A DNA stretch of 64,000 nt from Candidatus Saganbacteria bacterium (GCA_013204645.1 JABMSE010000112.1:4-64003); one strand, 5' to 3'; positions 39,483 through 60,851 are shown, counted from the stretch's first letter. A program made the numbers and translations. Notes: generated by a model not told the origin, from the sequence alone.

Positions 39483-39558
39483 AGTAGCCCCTATGTTTAG
39501 TACCTTTATTTTACCATACTATGTGGCTTTGCAAAGTAAATTAAAGGCAATCCGGAAA

Positions 39559-39673
39559 AAGGTAAGAATTTATTGTTTTCTTCTCGCTGCGGAACTCGCC
39601 CTTCGCTCCTCACTTTGTTCCTCGCTCGGGCTCAAACAGTCCTCGCTGCGAAAAAACAATAAATTCTTACCTT
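39559..39673. repeat. 21-bp perfect inverted repeat flanking a 73-nt GC-rich spacer (MITE-like / large stem-loop RNA element)
   Basis: AAGGTAAGAATTTATTGTTTT at 39559-39579 is the exact reverse complement of 39653-39673. The spacer contains about five CTCGCT-like motifs (four exact CTCGCT). The element is flanked by an A5 run on the left and a T7 run on the right. Confidence 0.6.
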
Positions 39674-41181
39674 ATTTTTTTATACAGCCTCACCCTTACC
39701 CGATACGAACCAGGCTGATGCCTTTTAATTGGCAATTTGGAAACCAGTGTTTCCTCGTAAGGAATATATTTTTGTTCGTTTTTGAGCGTGTAGTTTTCTT
39801 CCAAAGCGGCTTTGATTCTATCAATATAACCCGGAGGAAAAGCCCGGTCATCATGAATATTAGTTACAAACCATATTCTTTCTGGCTTTTCATCTGCCAG
39901 GTTAATTTTTACTTCCTCAAGATCAAATATGGGGGCATTGACATGTCCGGTTATGTTCAAATAATAATTCAGCAGCCGATAAACCACAAAATGGTTGCTA
40001 GAAAGTATGCTATCGCCTTTTCGATATTGCTCCTTAATTGAGGTGGCCACATCTCTCCATGGCTCTATCTGGTTAGAATTATGATAACTAACCAAATTAA
40101 AATAGTTATGGATGGAATAAGCCTGTAGCAATATAATCACTAAAATGACTCCACATCTCAAACTGACCTTTTTAACTCGAACAATCGAATAGCCTATTAA
40201 AAGCAGATAAAAAGGCAAAGTTATTATCAAAAACTTCGGCATCGTTGGCGCAAGGAACAATACCGAAAAGAGAATGGGAAAAAGACACAAGATCAACAAA
40301 TAAACGATCCTTTTATCCGGAAGCCGTTTGAGGTTCCATAAAAAGAGAAAGCCAAACACTATGGCAGCTGGGAGAACGATCATCAAATTCCACGGAGCAA
40401 CTGTTTCCCCCAAGGATAGAACGAAAAAAACCAGGGGGAGCTTTAAATACCAGGGGAAAACCGAAAAAGCCATATCGGAAGTACCAGAAATCACTGCAGA
40501 AAAATTTACGAATAACATCGCAATATAAGCTGGGAGTGCCAACGCCCCGACTAAAATTTGCAGAGTTAAAATGTGAAGAAATGTAGATGTCTTTTTTTCT
40601 TGCCAGAGAGAAAATACTAAGTAAATAAATTGTGCGGCAATGATAAGGGATCCATAAATATGGGTCATGACCAGTAGAAATGAAGCCACAAAATAAGCGG
40701 TCGAGACCAATAGATTTCGTTTACCCGATACTAAATTCCAAAAATAAAAGCTTGAAAGGATTGACAAAAGCAGGAGGAGCCCATACATTCGGATTTCCTG
40801 TGAATGCATTAAGGCCAAGGGAGATATTGCAAGTAAAAGCATGCTGACCAACGCGGTTTTATCGTCAAAGATCTTTCGGGCAAAGAAAAAGAAAGCGATT
40901 ATACTTGATAAGCCAATTAAAATTGATAATAAGCGCAAGATATACTCCCCTACCCCAAAAAGTTTTGTCCAAGCTGATAATAAAATGAAATAAACTGGCA
41001 GGTGCGAATCTTTTATTAGATTAAGGGTGGCTAGACCTATCGGATCGGAACTTACCTCCTGGGCCAAATAAAAACTATGGGTTTCATCCCCCCATAAGCT
41101 CCTAAAAATAGGATTATAAAAGCGAAGAGCTGATGCGAAAATGAGAATAAGCAAAAACCAAATTAAAGTTTTCCTATTCAT
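39667..41181 (-). CDS. GT-C family glycosyltransferase (ArnT/PMT_2-like, polyprenol-P-sugar dependent)
   Basis: N-terminus LIWFLLILIFASALRFYNPIFRSLWGDETHSFYLAQ resembles ArnT/PMT. 504 aa with many TM helices. Follows the GtrA/GtrB pair. Confidence 0.6.
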   Translation of the reverse strand: MNRKTLIWFLLILIFASALRFYNPIFRSLWGDETHSFYLAQEVSSDPIGLATLNLIKDSHLPVYFILLSAWTKLFGVGEYILRLLSILIGLSSIIAFFFFARKIFDDKTALVSMLLLAISPLALMHSQEIRMYGLLLLLSILSSFYFWNLVSGKRNLLVSTAYFVASFLLVMTHIYGSLIIAAQFIYLVFSLWQEKKTSTFLHILTLQILVGALALPAYIAMLFVNFSAVISGTSDMAFSVFPWYLKLPLVFFVLSLGETVAPWNLMIVLPAAIVFGFLFLWNLKRLPDKRIVYLLILCLFPILFSVLFLAPTMPKFLIITLPFYLLLIGYSIVRVKKVSLRCGVILVIILLQAYSIHNYFNLVSYHNSNQIEPWRDVATSIKEQYRKGDSILSSNHFVVYRLLNYYLNITGHVNAPIFDLEEVKINLADEKPERIWFVTNIHDDRAFPPGYIDRIKAALEENYTLKNEQKYIPYEETLVSKLPIKRHQPGSYRVRVRLYKKIR

Positions 41182-44549: not shown

Positions 44550-45518
44550 CTATGCCAAAACAAGCTTCTTCCACCACTCCTGGTTGTTATAATACCAGCG
44601 AATTGTTTGGGAAAGGCCCTCCTTGAGTTGCGTTGTGGGTGCCCAGCCCAATTTTTTTATTTTCGAACAATCAAGCGCATATCTTCTATCGTGGCCTAGG
44701 CGATCCTTAACATATTTTATTAAATCTTTCGGCTTACCCAGTTCATCTAAAATCATTCGGGTTATAGCTATATTTTCTTCTTCGTTGTCTGCTCCGATAT
44801 TATAGATCTCCCCTACCACCCCTTTTCGTAAAACTAAATCAATGGCCTCACAATTATCCATAACATACAGCCAATCCCGCACGTTTTTACCATCGCCCTA
44901 CAAAGGCAATTTCTTATCCTGCAAGGCATTAGTTATAAAGAGGGGGATGATCTTTTCGGGATACTGTAAAGGCCCATAATTATTAGAAGAACGGGTGATA
45001 ATGGCTGGTAAATTGTAGGTCTTAAAATAAGCACGAACCAGGAGATCTCCTCCTGCCTTGGAGGCTGAATAAGGGGAATTGGGAGACAAATTCGATTCCT
45101 CTGTGAAAGAGCCTTTTTCAATGCTACCATACACTTCATCGGTTGAGATGTGGATATAACGGCCAATATTATTCTTTTTAACAGCCTCAAGCAATATATG
45201 CGTGCCAAAAACATCCGTTTGCACAAAAGAGCCCGCAGATACAATTGAGCGGTCAACATGCGTTTCAGCAGCAAAATTGACGATGGCATCGATTTTAGGC
45301 AACAAACTCAAGGCTTTGTCAACGGCACCTGAATCAGAAATGTCACCCTTAAAAAACCTATAGCGTGGCTCCTTTTCTAGGTCGGAAAGATTAGAAAGAT
45401 TGCCGGCATAGGTTAAATTGTCAAAATTGAGTATTTCATCTTCGGGATAGTTAGAAAGAATATAGTGGATAAAATTGCTGCCAATAAATCCGGCACCACC
45501 AGTAACAAGAAGCTTCAC
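44550..45518 (-). pseudogene. rfbB: dTDP-glucose 4,6-dehydratase interrupted by an in-frame TAG
   Basis: The N-terminal ORF (44898..45518) and the C-terminal ORF (44550..44882) are in the same frame. The only break is a TAG at 44898-44900, replacing the conserved Tyr of the ...LP(I/L)YGDG(K)NVRDWLYV motif. This is a one-nucleotide change, TAT to TAG. Confidence 0.7.
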
Positions 45519-56983: not shown

Positions 56984-57312
56984 TTGACTTCAACTGCTTT
57001 AGAAAAAGTTGGAAAAACATTTTCAGCCGAAAAGGTCTTACTTTTTACCAATTCCAAAGCAAGTTTATTCACAAACATATCAGACCCAAAACGCGAACTC
57101 AAAAAATCATTATCTTTGTCATCTCCACTAAAATTAGGCGTCTTAAAGGCCTGCTTAAAAACCTCCCGATAAAAAATCACCATGAATTCATCTTTAATGC
57201 TTTCACGGGCAGCCTGCGTTTGTGCGTGGCTAGCTGCCACAATAATCTCATTCATTTTTCTGGTATCAGGAGAAGATCCCATTTGGCTTAGCGCAGTAAT
57301 TTCCGAAACCAT
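56980..57312 (-). CDS. flgJ: Rod-binding (FlgJ N-terminal-like) protein
   Basis: DEFMVIFYREVFKQAFK resembles the Rod-binding domain consensus (FEamflqqmLksmr). 110 aa. Sits in the expected position directly after flgI. Confidence 0.45.
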   Translation of the reverse strand: MVSEITALSQMGSSPDTRKMNEIIVAASHAQTQAARESIKDEFMVIFYREVFKQAFKTPNFSGDDKDNDFLSSRFGSDMFVNKLALELVKSKTFSAENVFPTFSKAVEVK

Positions 57313-58571
57313 TAAATCACCTCAAGTTCTGCCTTTATGGCACCAGCTCTTTTCATGGCCTGCAAAATAGCAATTAGGTCCTTGGGGGTAGCCCCAATCG
57401 TGTTTAACCCGCGCACTAGTGTTGATAGGGTTGCTCCCCCCTCAACCAAGGTTAACTTTCCTTCGGTTTTCTTTAATTGGGCATTTGAACGTGCAAGGTA
57501 ATAGCTTTCATCCAAAACCGAATCTTGCGTGTACCCTTCCGAAAAAAGAGAAACATTCCCAATGCTTACATCGATTCCCGCATAAGAGACCGCTACCGGA
57601 GAAATCTTCACATTTTCACCAATTACAATCGTTCCAGTACGCTCATTAACCACAATTTTGGCAACTACATCTGGGACAATAGTCAAACTCTCAATACGTG
57701 AGACAAGCTCAACAATATCATCATCATCGGAAATTGGAACGGTAATCGTAGCCGCATCGAGAGCCAAAGCTTCCAAGCCAATCCTTCTAATTGAGGAAAC
57801 CAAGCGACTTGCCGTAGTAAAATCTGGCTCATCCAAAACAATGGTAAGCAACTCCTTATTAGTGATTGAAACCGGCACTTATTTTTCAACCAAGGCCCCC
57901 CCCGGAATTCGGCCAACCGTGGTCTGACCATGTCTAACATATGGAATAGAAGGGGTGGTGGATTCCAGGCCAATTAGGAGGCTACCCTGGGCCACTGCAT
58001 AAACCTCCTCATTAACCCCTTGAAGGGGTGTAATCAATAGGGTTCCGCCTTGAAGAGAAGTTGCATCCCCCATAGACGAAACAGTAACATCCATTTTTTG
58101 CCCTGGCTTTACAAAAGATGGAAGGGTTGCCGTAACCATAACCGCTGCTACATTTCTTGATTTAAAATCAACTGACTGGGGTACAACTCCCATTCTGGAC
58201 AACAAATTGGTCAAGGCCTGCTGGGTAAAACCGGTTTGACTTCGGTCCCCGGTGTTTTTTAGGCCAACCACCAAACCAAATCCCATTAACTGATTATCCC
58301 GTGCTTCTAAGACATGAGCTATATCTTTTACTCTAACGGAGGGGGATTGAGCAGATGCAAAATACTCCGCCTGCGGCGGACAAACTACAAAGTACAAAAT
58401 ACAACCCAAAAACAAAATTTTCTTAATAACTTGTGCCTTGTGCCCTCGTCCTGAGGTCTGGCCCAACATGACTCGGTCCGAAGGATTTGTGCCTTGTAAC
58501 ATTATTTGCTTCCTCCTAAAAGATCCAATTAAAAAGCCGAGTAATCCAACCCGGGGACTCGGTGTCCGCAA
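57312..58571 (-). pseudogene. flgI: Flagellar P-ring protein FlgI interrupted by an in-frame TAA
   Basis: The N-terminal part (57879..58571) and the C-terminal part (57312..57878) are collinear with full-length FlgI and lie in the same frame. A single TAA at 57879-57881 sits where E. coli FlgI has Glu (VERELP; here VEK*VP). Confidence 0.7.
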
Positions 58572-59238
58572 TCACGCCAGTCCCTCTTACGGAAACCTCA
58601 GCATTAGCCACCTGATAGGAATAAACTGTATTCTCGCCACTTAGATCTTTAGGTCGAACAATTCCGCTTACTGTAATCTCTTGCATTTCATCATTTACCT
58701 CGACCTTATGTCGTCCACGAATTTCAAGATTACCATTGGGAAAGACATTTGTAACCCAGGCCGCCACCCGAGCAGAAACATCATTGCTGCGGGTTGTCTC
58801 CCCATCCCCAGTAAATTTATTCGAGACTTGTCCCGTTACCTGGTTGGAGGCTCCAATTATAGGAGCCAAGCGCTGAATAGTATGGGCAAACTGTAGCCCC
58901 AAATCATCCCTGACATTCGTTTTAGTCCTAGCTTTATTCTTAGCACTGGTGTTCTCCATGATAATAACATTTACAATATCTCCCACGCGGTAAGCCTTTT
59001 GGGCGTTGTAAGGTGAAGCACTATTATCATTCCAGACAGAATCTGCTCTCACAGGCAAGATAGAAAAATAAGCTACAAGAGACAAGATACAAAAACCAAA
59101 TAATAACCAATAACCAATATTCAACATCCAAATTGAAGGCCTTTGAAATTTGTTTTTTGGAATTTGCAATTTATTTGAATCTTGTACCTTGTATCTTGTA
59201 TCTTGCATCTTGTGTCTTGTATCTTGTGCGTTTATCAT
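58516..59238 (-). CDS. flgH: Flagellar L-ring protein FlgH
   Basis: ...YRVGDIVNVIIMENTSAKNKAR...GNLEIRGRHKVEVNDEMQEITVSGIVRPKDL... is a canonical FlgH core. The likely true start is the Met at ~59127 (MLNIGYWLLFGFCILSLVAYF signal peptide). The longer ORF reaching 59238 reads through the heptamer array. Confidence 0.75.
   Translation of the reverse strand: MINAQDTRHKMQDTRYKVQDSNKLQIPKNKFQRPSIWMLNIGYWLLFGFCILSLVAYFSILPVRADSVWNDNSASPYNAQKAYRVGDIVNVIIMENTSAKNKARTKTNVRDDLGLQFAHTIQRLAPIIGASNQVTGQVSNKFTGDGETTRSNDVSARVAAWVTNVFPNGNLEIRGRHKVEVNDEMQEITVSGIVRPKDLSGENTVYSYQVANAEVSVRGTGVIADTESPGWITRLFNWIF
59181..59229. repeat. Seven tandem copies of heptanucleotide CTTGTAT (degenerate: CTTGTAC/CTTGCAT/CTTGTGT/CTTGTGC)
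   Basis: Seven contiguous 7-nt units read directly from the sequence. The array lies between the flgA stop (59235) and the flgH signal-peptide Met (~59127). Confidence 0.85.
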
Positions 59239-60041
59239 TTTAACACCACCTCAACTTCTCCTGGGGCAATCAGAATTCCCTCCAGGGTTTTTTTTGTCTC
59301 TTTTTTTCTTACCGTTATCTTGCCACCTATATAGCCATCCATTAAGGCTATCCCGCTCGTTTTCAGCAACAAATTAGGCGCCCTTACGAAAATCGTAACT
59401 GAATCCCCACGCCGGGCTTGCGGAACTTCTTTTATCATCCAAGAAAACACGGTACTATTTTGGGGGATGGTTGTTTTTGCTTCTCGGCCAGAAACTTGAT
59501 CAAAAGAAGTGAAATATTTCTGCGGTAACATTGCAATATCTCTTTTTTCTAAAGCTAGATCGTCTCTTTTTATCTCCTGGCCACGTTTAATTTTTTTCGC
59601 CGCCGCCACAATACCTAAAAAAACCTCAACCTTTGCTCGAATAAAAATGGTGCTTTTATCCTTTCCATCAAAAACCTCGATGGGAAAAATAACATTGCCC
59701 ACCGGCCTAAAATCTTTATAAGTTTCTTTTATTTTTAAATCAGCATTAGGAGACAGACCACGCAAGATATCAAATGCCTTATCTGCCATCCGATAAGTGA
59801 CGGAAATATCCAAACCCGTAAGCTTCGGATCATAGGAAATGACCAAGCCTTCTACGAGTTTGGTAACCTTCTGTTCAGGATTATCCAAGGCAGCAGCTGG
59901 AATCGATAAAATACAAGATACAAGACACAAGATACAATAACCAAATAATATCCGATATCCAATATCCAACATCCAAATTGGAGATTTTTGAAATTTGATT
60001 TTTGAAACTCGTAATTTATTTATATTTTGTATCTTGGTCAT
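59235..60041 (-). CDS. flgA: Flagellar basal-body P-ring formation chaperone FlgA
   Basis: C-terminal SAF/FlgA domain (...GDSVTIFVRAPNLLLKTSGIALMDGYIGGKITVRKK...). The likely start is the Met of MLDIGYRILFGYCILCLVSCILSIPAAA, at ~59972. Confidence 0.65.
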   Translation of the reverse strand: MTKIQNINKLRVSKIKFQKSPIWMLDIGYRILFGYCILCLVSCILSIPAAALDNPEQKVTKLVEGLVISYDPKLTGLDISVTYRMADKAFDILRGLSPNADLKIKETYKDFRPVGNVIFPIEVFDGKDKSTIFIRAKVEVFLGIVAAAKKIKRGQEIKRDDLALEKRDIAMLPQKYFTSFDQVSGREAKTTIPQNSTVFSWMIKEVPQARRGDSVTIFVRAPNLLLKTSGIALMDGYIGGKITVRKKETKKTLEGILIAPGEVEVVLK

Positions 60042-60053
60042 TGTTTCTTTTTC

Positions 60054-60851
60054 TTACTGTTTCATTGCCTCCAAGCTTCTAAGCATACCCTCATAGGATT
60101 GCACAGCCTTGGTCACCGTATCAAAAACTCTTTGCACCATTACCATGCGCATCATTTCAGAGATAACATCAACATTTGATTGCTCTAGAGCATATTGCCG
60201 AATGGTACCAAACCCATCTTCTCCCGGAATACCTACCCATGGTTCACCGGATGCTTCACTTTCCTGGTAAAGATTCTGTCCAATCGTGGTTAACCCAGCG
60301 GAATTAGTGAAACGAACTAAGTCGATTTGTCCGATCTCGGAATAACTAGTTTCATTATTTATCGCCGCATAAACTAAGCCATCAGACTGGATAAGAACCG
60401 AGGTGGTACCCTCGGGAAAAATAATTTGTGGTTCAAGCAAATGGCCATTTGGATCACAGAGGTTGCCATCATTGTCAATGTGCAAATTGCCAGCCCGACC
60501 ATAAGCTAGGGTTGCGTCCGGCATGCCAAACTGTAAAAAGCCATCGCCTTCAATGGCAACATCCAAGGGATTAGAAGTTATATCAATTGAACCTTGCGTA
60601 AAATCAGCCGGGGTAGCAGCTACACGAACTCCAGTTCCATATTCAACATTAACTGGAGGAGCTTCCATTCCGCTCATAGATTCATAGAGCATATCCTTAA
60701 AACTTTTTTCAATGTAAAAAAGGCTCTCCATCTCAGTACGAGATTTTTTAAAAGCAATTGTCTGGGCATTGGCCAAATTGTTGGTAATGGTCAAGATCTC
60801 ATCTTCCATCGCAGAAAGCCCTGTAGCTGCAACATATAAAGGTTGAAACAT
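60054..60851 (-). CDS. flgG: Flagellar basal-body rod protein FlgG
   Basis: MFQPLYVAATGLSAMEDEILTITNNLANAQTIAFKK... plus a C-terminal ...ALEQSNVDVISEMMRMVMVQRVFD... Confidence 0.8.
   Translation of the reverse strand: MFQPLYVAATGLSAMEDEILTITNNLANAQTIAFKKSRTEMESLFYIEKSFKDMLYESMSGMEAPPVNVEYGTGVRVAATPADFTQGSIDITSNPLDVAIEGDGFLQFGMPDATLAYGRAGNLHIDNDGNLCDPNGHLLEPQIIFPEGTTSVLIQSDGLVYAAINNETSYSEIGQIDLVRFTNSAGLTTIGQNLYQESEASGEPWVGIPGEDGFGTIRQYALEQSNVDVISEMMRMVMVQRVFDTVTKAVQSYEGMLRSLEAMKQ

Follow-up and report, generated by a model that had tools for sequence, protein, structure and literature searches.

Heptamer tandem repeats, known as STRR sequences, are present in Cyanobacteria, and the opa genes of Neisseria carry CTCTT coding repeats in the signal-peptide region, in tracts that are long, perfect and demonstrably variable. 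In Beggiatoaceae, TAACTGA direct repeats are localized upstream of start codons (PMC4679880), and in the 5'-untranslated region (5'-UTR) of Haemophilus influenzae hmw1A a phase-variable (ATCTTTC)n tract forms part of a hairpin processed by RNase III (PMC12721329). [quoted passage not shown] In this study, we analyzed a 64-kb stretch of Candidatus Saganbacteria DNA (hereafter the window), in which an extended flagellar operon on the minus strand contains two heptamer-bearing cassettes, one at the 5' end of flgA (encoding the P-ring chaperone) and one at that of flgH (encoding the L-ring protein). The cassettes are probably copies of a dispersed, AT-rich, hairpin-forming repeat of about 100–170 nt (RPE-, REP- or MITE-like) that has been absorbed in frame by both genes.

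The cassettes, designated copy A (flgA; positions 59909–60051, minus strand) and copy H (flgH; 59064–59232, minus strand), share the longest direct repeat of the window, D1, in which 59064–59204 and 59909–60049 are 81% identical over 141 nt. The duplicated core upstream of flgH and flgA that an initial annotation of this DNA had pointed out is therefore real, and bigger than was claimed. On the gene strand, each cassette constitutes, from end to end, a single imperfect palindrome, with 44 of 63 Watson-Crick pairs at 59070–59204 and 42 of 63 at 59915–60049, and an ungapped palindrome scan of the 64 kb returned exactly two palindromes of such size, i.e., both cassettes. The palindrome of copy H is centered near 59137, with an expanded heptamer array in its 5' arm, and that of copy A near 59982. 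RNA folding predicted a single hairpin for each of them (−43.6 kcal/mol, z = −4.4 for copy H; −41.2 kcal/mol, z = −4.7 for copy A), the stability of which was equaled by none of the shuffled sequences. The 5' arms are A/C-rich (53–55% A) and the 3' arms G/T-rich (51–58% T, 19–22% G).

As proposed in the initial annotation, the arms carry heptamers of opposite orientation. The tandem heptamers between flgA and the FlgH signal peptide, situated in the 5' arm of copy H (59175–59227, minus strand), were recovered by Tandem Repeats Finder (TRF) as TTGTATC ×7.6 (score 78, 84% matches; ACAAGAT units on the gene strand), which is the top-scoring tandem repeat of the window; this array is degenerate, and its longest perfect run covers 18 nt, i.e., about 2.6 units. 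Inverse heptamers were found in both 3' arms: in copy H as about three imperfect ATCTTGT-type units (59070–59092, minus strand; inverted repeat I2; the heptamers announced earlier correspond to 59077–59092), which encode CILSLV, and in copy A as ATACAAG ×3.9 (59911–59937, minus strand; TRF score 47; ATCTTGT on the gene strand), which encodes CILCLVSCIL. The numbers of units are unequal between the arms of each copy (7.6 versus about 3 in copy H, about 1.5 versus 3.9 in copy A), which indicates that array lengths changed in the past. Elsewhere in the window the heptamers occur at the rate expected from composition (4–11 occurrences versus about 6 expected per strand).

Both cassettes overlap coding sequence. 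The flgA gene (59235–60041, minus strand; Pfam ChapFlgA, 3e-26) starts within copy A: its ATG (60041–60039) lies in the conserved 5' end of the element, CAATGACCAAGATACAA, 12 nt past the flgG stop and without a ribosome-binding site, so that the A/C-rich 5' arm (approximately 59987–60049) holds the start codon and the G/T-rich 3' arm (approximately 59915–59977) encodes the core of the FlgA signal peptide. In the case of flgH (58516–59238, minus strand; Pfam FlgH, 5e-50, and alignment with the related locus L054), an ancestral ribosome-binding site, GAGGTGGTG, and the ATG at 59238 overlap the flgA stop, and the 3' arm of copy H (59070–59133) encodes the FlgH signal-peptide core. The FlgH ORF is 100% identical to NCBI NQT30074.1, which is annotated as a 240-aa protein, i.e., with the start at 59238; if this start is used, the array at 59175–59227 translates to QDTRHKMQDTRYKVQD. 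Internal ATGs are present in flgH (59127–59125, in frame and without a ribosome-binding site) and in flgA (59972–59970). A CsrA-like GGAUGU was also observed at these internal ATGs, confined to the two window copies.

Over both cassettes the gene frame contains no stop codons, and the other two frames of the gene strand contain 1–4 (1 and 4 in the flgH cassette). Read in the gene frame, the 5' arm gives a Lys/Gln/Asn/Thr-rich N-terminal extension (net charge of about +5 in FlgH and about +6 in FlgA), and the 3' arm gives the core hydrophobic segment of a Sec signal peptide (FlgH, WLLFGFCILSLVAYF; FlgA, ILFGYCILCLVSCIL); the translations FGFCILSLV and FGYCILCLVSCIL given previously were correct. 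Inspection of the sequences, used here in place of a dedicated predictor, identified an n-region, an h-region, a small-x-small site and a mature domain aligned with homologues, as in Sec (type I) signal peptides. In FlgH the positively charged n-region is followed by WLLFGFCILSLVAYFSIL, with predicted cleavage between VRA and DSVWN and the mature protein beginning at 59043, while in FlgA it is followed by ILFGYCILCLVSCILSI and then by AAA, with LD after the cleavage site. The CIL tripeptide of FlgH and FlgA results from the reading of the ATCTTGT units of the element as TGT-ATC-TTG. It does not reflect a genome-wide artefact common to secreted proteins, an option left standing by the initial annotation, as among 14 window ORFs with an N-terminal hydrophobic segment it was found only in FlgH, FlgA, and FlgI.

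For comparison, 34 species-level representatives of Saganbacteria and Margulisbacteria were retrieved through FlgH. The flgF-flgG-flgA-flgH-flgI gene order was present in all of them, and the distance between the previous stop and the first mature codon was usually 55–80 nt, which corresponds to a plain signal peptide. Leaders of 100–220 nt with strong hairpins (z < −3.5) occurred sporadically, i.e., at flgA in the window, L007, and L017 (the latter sharing the flgG-flgA junction of the window), at flgH in the window, L005, and L007, and at flgI in L007, L008, L011, L031, and L036. In every case of the A/C-to-G/T type, the start of the 5' arm coincides with the ATG or lies close to it, and the h-region is the 3' arm; the hairpins of the relatives often lack tandem repeats, and the feature they share is the succession of an A/C arm and a G/T arm. 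As flgI of L011 has no internal ATG, its whole hairpin must be translated. A GC-rich nested palindrome (CCCTCACCCC...CCCCTCTCCCAGAGGGAGAGGGG...), unlike the heptamer element, was observed in the flgA leader of L007 (L007:3095–3303) and the flgI leader of L008 (L008:4552–4774), both from other Saganbacteria, where it lies in frame between the start codon and the h-region (z = −7.2 and −6.7, respectively) and translates as ...PSPSPRGRG...; its presence there points to a second repeat family at the same landing site.

The closest available relative, L054 (ENA ERZ24794671; FlgH 87% identical, about 85% at the DNA level), is collinear with the window through the 3' end of flgA and the common start GAGGTGGT(G/A)TTAAAATGA, after which its flgH continues directly with a plain 28-residue signal peptide, MKLQFGRLAIGICLLFVVWSLGFSSAFG, and contains no element; the element profile described below gave no match in this locus. 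Relative to L054, the window flgH shows a net gain of 111 nt (37 codons), with the mature domain collinear. Since this gain lies behind an unchanged ribosome-binding site and ATG, the flgH cassette is a recent in-frame gain, and the same conservation favours translation of flgH from 59238.

An nhmmer profile built from seven elements was applied to 1.13 Mb of retrieved DNA and revealed 41 near-full copies of the element, distributed among Saganbacteria, Margulisbacteria, and Patescibacteria. Copy A (59911–60049, E = 3.6e-33) and copy H (59068–59205, E = 3.3e-34) both belong to this family, and matches outside the seed set reached E = 1e-17 to 1e-26 (L071, L059, L069, L060, L109, L151, and L169). 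The matches also include L008 (at flgH, likewise outside the seed set), L007, L011, L004, and L031, which had been retrieved via FlgH and not via the heptamer, and all seven profile matches in FlgH-retrieved loci are localized at the 5' ends of flgA, flgH or flgI. Other copies are intergenic (L175, L069, L107, and L176, in the last case between pilMN and the next gene), lie just upstream of start codons (ahcY-like L151 and pyrE-like L063), at an N-terminus (L171), or in frame inside enzymes (GlgA-like L089). Three O-antigen-ligase proteins (L128:2939–4360, L062:7986–9536, and L150:3215–4558) carry the element in frame at one common loop-to-helix site, where it stands in place of a Lys/Asn-rich loop and of the first part of a membrane helix. 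A Patescibacteria entry is 100% identical to the L128 protein, whose insert-free homologues have about 430 aa compared with its 470. In L062, additional KFQISNF- and KKDTRYKMQD-type stretches were observed upstream of the element, and the sequence suggests several insertions in this one protein. Some contigs contain multiple copies. On one of them (L059:2300–5057, Ga0180007_10022135) at least four copies within 5 kb and a 74-nt heptamer array were noted, a density which points to a genome very rich in the family.

In the family alignment, CAA recurs at intervals of 7 nt along the 5' arm, as does TTG along the 3' arm, and this periodicity identifies the element as an inverted pair of degenerate heptamer arrays. 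The 5' terminus is CAAT(A/G)ACCAAGATACAAG (window flgA, L017, L175, L176, and L071), and its inverted complement, CTTGTATCTTGGTTATT, is found at the 3' end of some copies (L071 and L059). The GC content of the elements is 19–44%, compared with 33–65% in the hosts, i.e., they are AT-rich whatever the host. Like MITEs, they have terminal inverted repeats (the whole element being an inverted repeat) and many dispersed copies whose presence or absence differs between relatives, and like RPEs they lie in frame in genuine ORFs and leave the rest of the host protein intact (flgH, L128, L062, L150, and L089).

The heptamer itself is more widespread than the complete element: a metagenome scan for CAAGATACAAGAYACAAG returned at least 120 contigs, mostly with lone arrays and in a subset with A/C-then-G/T hairpins, and most of the 80 heptamer-scan loci examined had only one array, unaccompanied by an inverted partner and frequently situated at a contig end. 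In an exhaustive HMMER search of 1.84 billion proteins, the cassette peptide gave 32 matches, several of which are short ORFs reading through element copies, whereas the rest mostly match the heptamer-coded stretch alone. Two of the proteins, P0142 (...QDTRYKQIPKSKFQYWILVFDHWLLFGYCFLVIVSC) and P0150, carry KQIPKSKFQ...WLLFGYCFL, and on their contigs the element lies between genes. A word-indexed protein search with a 50-residue cassette peptide gave no candidate; it was uninformative and was superseded by the exhaustive search.

Both cassettes were found base for base, with no gaps, in two other assemblies (L001/L002), JGI 3300032738 (4464 nt) and Logan SRR28106056 (1253 nt), which rejects an assembly artefact as their source. 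L001 and L002 have in common one synonymous single-nucleotide polymorphism relative to the window, at 59700, so the three assemblies represent two haplotypes, and the heptamer counts are identical in both.

The initial annotation had extended the cassette, as a modular leader plus signal peptide, to a third gene, flgI. Such a cassette exists in flgA and flgH, while flgI does not contain it: the supposed degenerate heptamer copies at 58380–58404 and 58430–58444 have TRF scores of 36 and 30, which places them among some 30 further rows at chance level, the flgI leader folds no better than shuffled sequences (z = −0.2) and forms no hairpin, and the element profile gave no match there. About 53 nt of this leader (58445–58502; ATGTTACAAGGCACAAATCCTTCGGACCGAGTCATGTTGGGCCAGACC...) are absent from L054, but they are neither A/C-rich nor hairpin-forming and fall outside the element family. 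The putative sigma-28 −10 motif, CCGATAT (59952–59958), likewise lost its significance, as it lies on the plus strand, antisense to the genes and inside the signal-peptide codons of flgA. A sigma-28 (FliA) promoter would combine a −10 GCCGATAA-like box and a TAAA −35 box on the transcribed strand upstream of the gene, and CCGATAT occurs on the plus strand only; promoter-like sites were not enriched in a sigma-70-type consensus scan (2 found versus 4.6 expected), and a terminator scan likewise showed no enrichment.

According to the interpretation that we favour, the element consists of a run of degenerate heptamers with CAA once per 7 nt (ACAAGAT, ACAAACA, AATTCCA, and others), followed by its inverted complement, and a copy read in frame encodes a Lys/Gln/Asn/Thr-rich polar stretch and then a hydrophobic one, suitable either as the n-region and h-region of a Sec signal peptide or as a loop and a membrane helix. 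One copy entered flgH right behind the start codon, adding the net 37 codons and replacing the old hydrophobic core, and its sister copy supplies even the ATG of flgA, so that the FlgH and FlgA pre-proteins both have an element-encoded signal-peptide core. Of these points, the sequences themselves show the hairpin anatomy, the membership in the family, the gain relative to L054, the in-frame arrangement, and the derivation of the h-region from the element. The A/C arm would be translated from the upstream ATG as an extended n-region. Elements would stay in frame only where the protein needs a polar-to-hydrophobic transition, and within a gap-free operon such sites would be the sole tolerated landing sites. 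By analogy with ERIC, REP or BIME hairpins inside operons, the mRNA hairpin may slow, modulate or couple translation. As far as the evidence goes, the heptamer arrays belong to the construction of the element, drift in length in the course of evolution, and do not resemble a switch.

Several points weigh against this interpretation. Mobility is deduced from the distribution of copies, since neither a target-site duplication nor a transposase or any other sign of mobility was found: no consistent direct repeat was seen in the flanks of 20 copies (the element ends being fuzzy because of the heptamer arrays), and no transposase or other mobility signature turned up at the inspected copies, although no search aimed at transposases was made. 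The 64-kb window contains only two copies. Because most members were retrieved via the heptamer itself, the homology of the outer arms is partly built in, and the number of copies should not be read as an unbiased census. As evidence of translation the open frame is weak, since arms that are A/C-rich and then G/T-rich on either strand are intrinsically poor in stop codons, and translation may begin at either the upstream or the internal ATG. Finally, the recurrence of hairpins at exactly the three Sec-exported flagellar genes could mean a selected regulatory role.

The last point leads to a different explanation, namely that the hairpins at the flgG-flgA and flgA-flgH junctions are dedicated cis-regulatory mRNA structures, which would govern how translation is coupled, how fast the ribosome moves at the signal peptide, or how RNase III processes the RNA; the number of heptamers would then tune the stem length, as in a rheostat of the hmw1A 5'-UTR kind, and such a role would be compatible with an origin from a repeat element. 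Across several lineages, hairpins that differ in sequence are found repeatedly at all three Sec-exported genes, pairing at the stem base often involves the start codon (L011, L004, L007, and window flgA), and there is a precedent for a heptamer repeat acting as an arm of a long hairpin that RNase III processes (PMC12721329). Among the 12 gene-associated hairpins, the sense fold surpasses the antisense fold in stability in 11 and is no less stable in the remaining one, G.U pairs exceed A.C mismatches (28 versus 16 overall, 9 versus 0 in the window), and arm complementarity is 65–70% within elements versus 37–39% between them, the latter in a centre-registered comparison, which is only suggestive and was used because the inner arms are too variable in length to be aligned. 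The G.U bias and the within-element match, however, may have their source in selection on the hydrophobic arm at the protein level and in the alignment register. Moreover, most relatives, including L054, have plain 55–80-nt leaders, so flagellar assembly does not depend on the hairpin; the element is found in unrelated contexts as well, even inside enzymes; RNAalifold applied to 23 elements recovered only a conserved outer stem with almost no covariation; and no Rfam 15 family matched at its gathering score (the best were plant miRNA-precursor hairpins, 27 bits versus 130). We consider a dedicated regulatory function unlikely.

Far less probable still is the phase-variable contingency locus envisaged in the initial annotation, in which slipped-strand changes in heptamer number would shift the frame and switch FlgH or FlgA on or off. 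The 7-nt unit is indeed not a multiple of three, a change by one unit in the 5' array of flgH would truncate the product started at 59238 at off-frame stops, the unequal arrays testify to past changes of length, and coding repeats within a signal peptide are a known switch design, exemplified by the CTCTT repeats of Neisseria opa. Nevertheless, such switches require long near-perfect tracts, whereas the long array here is degenerate and the coding-arm tracts comprise only about three imperfect units; known heptamer switches have long perfect tracts, with at least 11 units in natural hmw alleles (PMC12721329). The counts are equal in the two haplotypes, the 90%-identity protein clusters of FlgH and FlgA contain no length variants, the in-frame internal ATG of flgH (59127), downstream of the long array, could buffer frameshifts, the relatives have the hairpin without tandem repeats, and flagellar ring and chaperone proteins are atypical targets of contingency loci. 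A purely local origin, by inverted duplication of the gene's own signal-peptide sequence and subsequent gene conversion between flgA and flgH, with no repeat family involved, seems equally improbable. It would agree with the loose alignment of the L054 signal-peptide DNA with the 3' arm of the window cassette (CAATTTGGA...), with the two window copies being each other's closest relatives, and with arms that match much better within elements than between them, but it does not account for profile matches down to E = 1e-26 in unrelated genes, intergenic regions, and other phyla, for conserved termini common to copies in several contexts, for an element that is AT-rich even in hosts of 60–65% GC, or for the lack of a profile match in L054.

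If the cassettes are absorbed copies of a dispersed repeat, this would account for the K/Q/N/T-rich N-terminal extensions and the LVIG-, CIL-, and WSL-type cores in many proteins of candidate phyla, would caution against annotating repeat read-throughs, such as P0142 and P0150, as short hypothetical proteins, and would offer a concrete, testable route for creating or swapping export signals and membrane segments. It would also remove the grounds for assuming a phase-variation switch in the flagellar genes. A bolder proposal, to which we assign a low probability, is that the element acts as a portable donor of signal peptides and membrane anchors: nearly free of stops and encoding a charged polar segment and then a hydrophobic one from either strand, it would create or replace an export signal when inserted at a 5' end and add a loop and a helix when inserted into a membrane-protein gene, with the mRNA hairpin coupling translation to the upstream gene. 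Were this true, the family would have altered the N-termini of exported proteins time and again throughout Saganbacteria, Margulisbacteria, and Patescibacteria, and a repeat element would be a mechanism for the de novo birth and exchange of targeting signals.

The operon around the cassettes comprises, in the order of the minus strand, a fliK-like gene, a flhB-C-like gene, flgF, flgG, flgA, flgH, flgI, a 110-aa ORF, a gene for a FliA-like sigma factor, flgB, flgC, fliE, fliF ... fliH, fliI, and fliJ. The flgG gene (60054–60851, minus strand) encodes Pfam rod domains, and its stop is 12 nt before the flgA ATG. The P-ring gene flgI (57312–58502, minus strand) is preceded by an AGGAGG ribosome-binding site and matches the Pfam FlgI profile in two parts (profile positions 1–153 and 156–343), between which an in-frame TAA (57879–57881) splits the gene without a frameshift (...GGALVEK-stop-VPVSITNKE...); this could be a pseudogene, a consensus error of the metagenome-assembled genome, or a case of readthrough. 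A scan of the window revealed only one other internal in-frame stop, a TAG (44898–44900) in the gene of an RmlB-like dTDP-glucose 4,6-dehydratase (44550–45518, minus strand), at a position where the family has Tyr (...KKLPL-stop-GDGKNVRDWLYV...). Apart from the cassettes, the best short-range inverted repeat of the window is a 24-nt one (39556–39579 and 39653–39676), with 96% complementary arms 73 nt apart. In two Saganbacteria/WOR-1 genomes (L005:5165–5233 and L016:1201–1265), a conserved palindrome, CCCCACACT.AAGTGTGGGGAATATTAT...CCCCA.ACTT.AGT..GGGG, was observed away from flgA, flgH, and flgI; judged by its sequence, it looks REP-like.

Compared with the heptamer repeats of Cyanobacteria and Beggiatoaceae, the present family has in common short 7-nt arrays at many loci, often just upstream of start codons, a patchy phylogenetic distribution, and no known mobility mechanism. 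Cyanobacteria are a sister lineage of Saganbacteria, and TTGGTCA-type (STRR2-like) units are found in leaders of the relatives (flgA of L011). The repeats of those groups are, however, mostly direct, whereas here a different unit forms inverted pairs within one hairpin and is partly translated. As in hmw1A, a long RNA hairpin situated at the start of a gene encoding an exported protein, or upstream of it, has a heptamer array as its left arm, but hmw1A has at least 11 near-perfect units with length variation in populations and a G-rich non-repeat right arm, compared with 7.6 degenerate units, no variation seen, and an inverted, coding array in the window; should a rheostat exist here, hmw1A would be its nearest functional analogue. 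The likeness to Neisseria opa lies in short tandem repeats, with a unit that is not a multiple of three, encoding the hydrophobic core of a signal peptide, while opa has no inverted partner or hairpin, encodes surface antigens and not flagellar ring proteins, and has perfect and variable tracts in place of degenerate ones.

The ERIC/IRU, REP/BIME, and REPIN families share with the element the form of dispersed imperfect palindromes (about 30–130 nt), often situated between operon genes and transcribed as hairpins, and many copies of the present family are intergenic too (L175, L176, L069, and L107). Their termini and sequence are different, and the element described here extends into coding sequence, to which it contributes a start codon and a signal peptide. 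The RPEs, likened to the element by description and by analogy only, are palindromic, multi-copy, of about 100–150 bp, and placed in frame in unrelated genes, to whose products they contribute a peptide segment, the host protein not being destroyed. The differences are that the hosts here belong to other phyla (Saganbacteria, Margulisbacteria, and Patescibacteria), that the element is made of inverted heptamer arrays, and that its polar-then-hydrophobic output falls at signal peptides or loop-to-helix transitions, whereas RPEs occupy surface loops of soluble enzymes. The literature searched, the coverage of which was incomplete, contained no description of a heptamer-palindrome element with arms encoding the halves of a signal peptide, which is weak evidence of novelty. 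Palindromic repeats in frame are already known, above all as RPEs, but arms built in such a way that each encodes one half of a signal peptide are, as far as we can tell, a feature not previously described.

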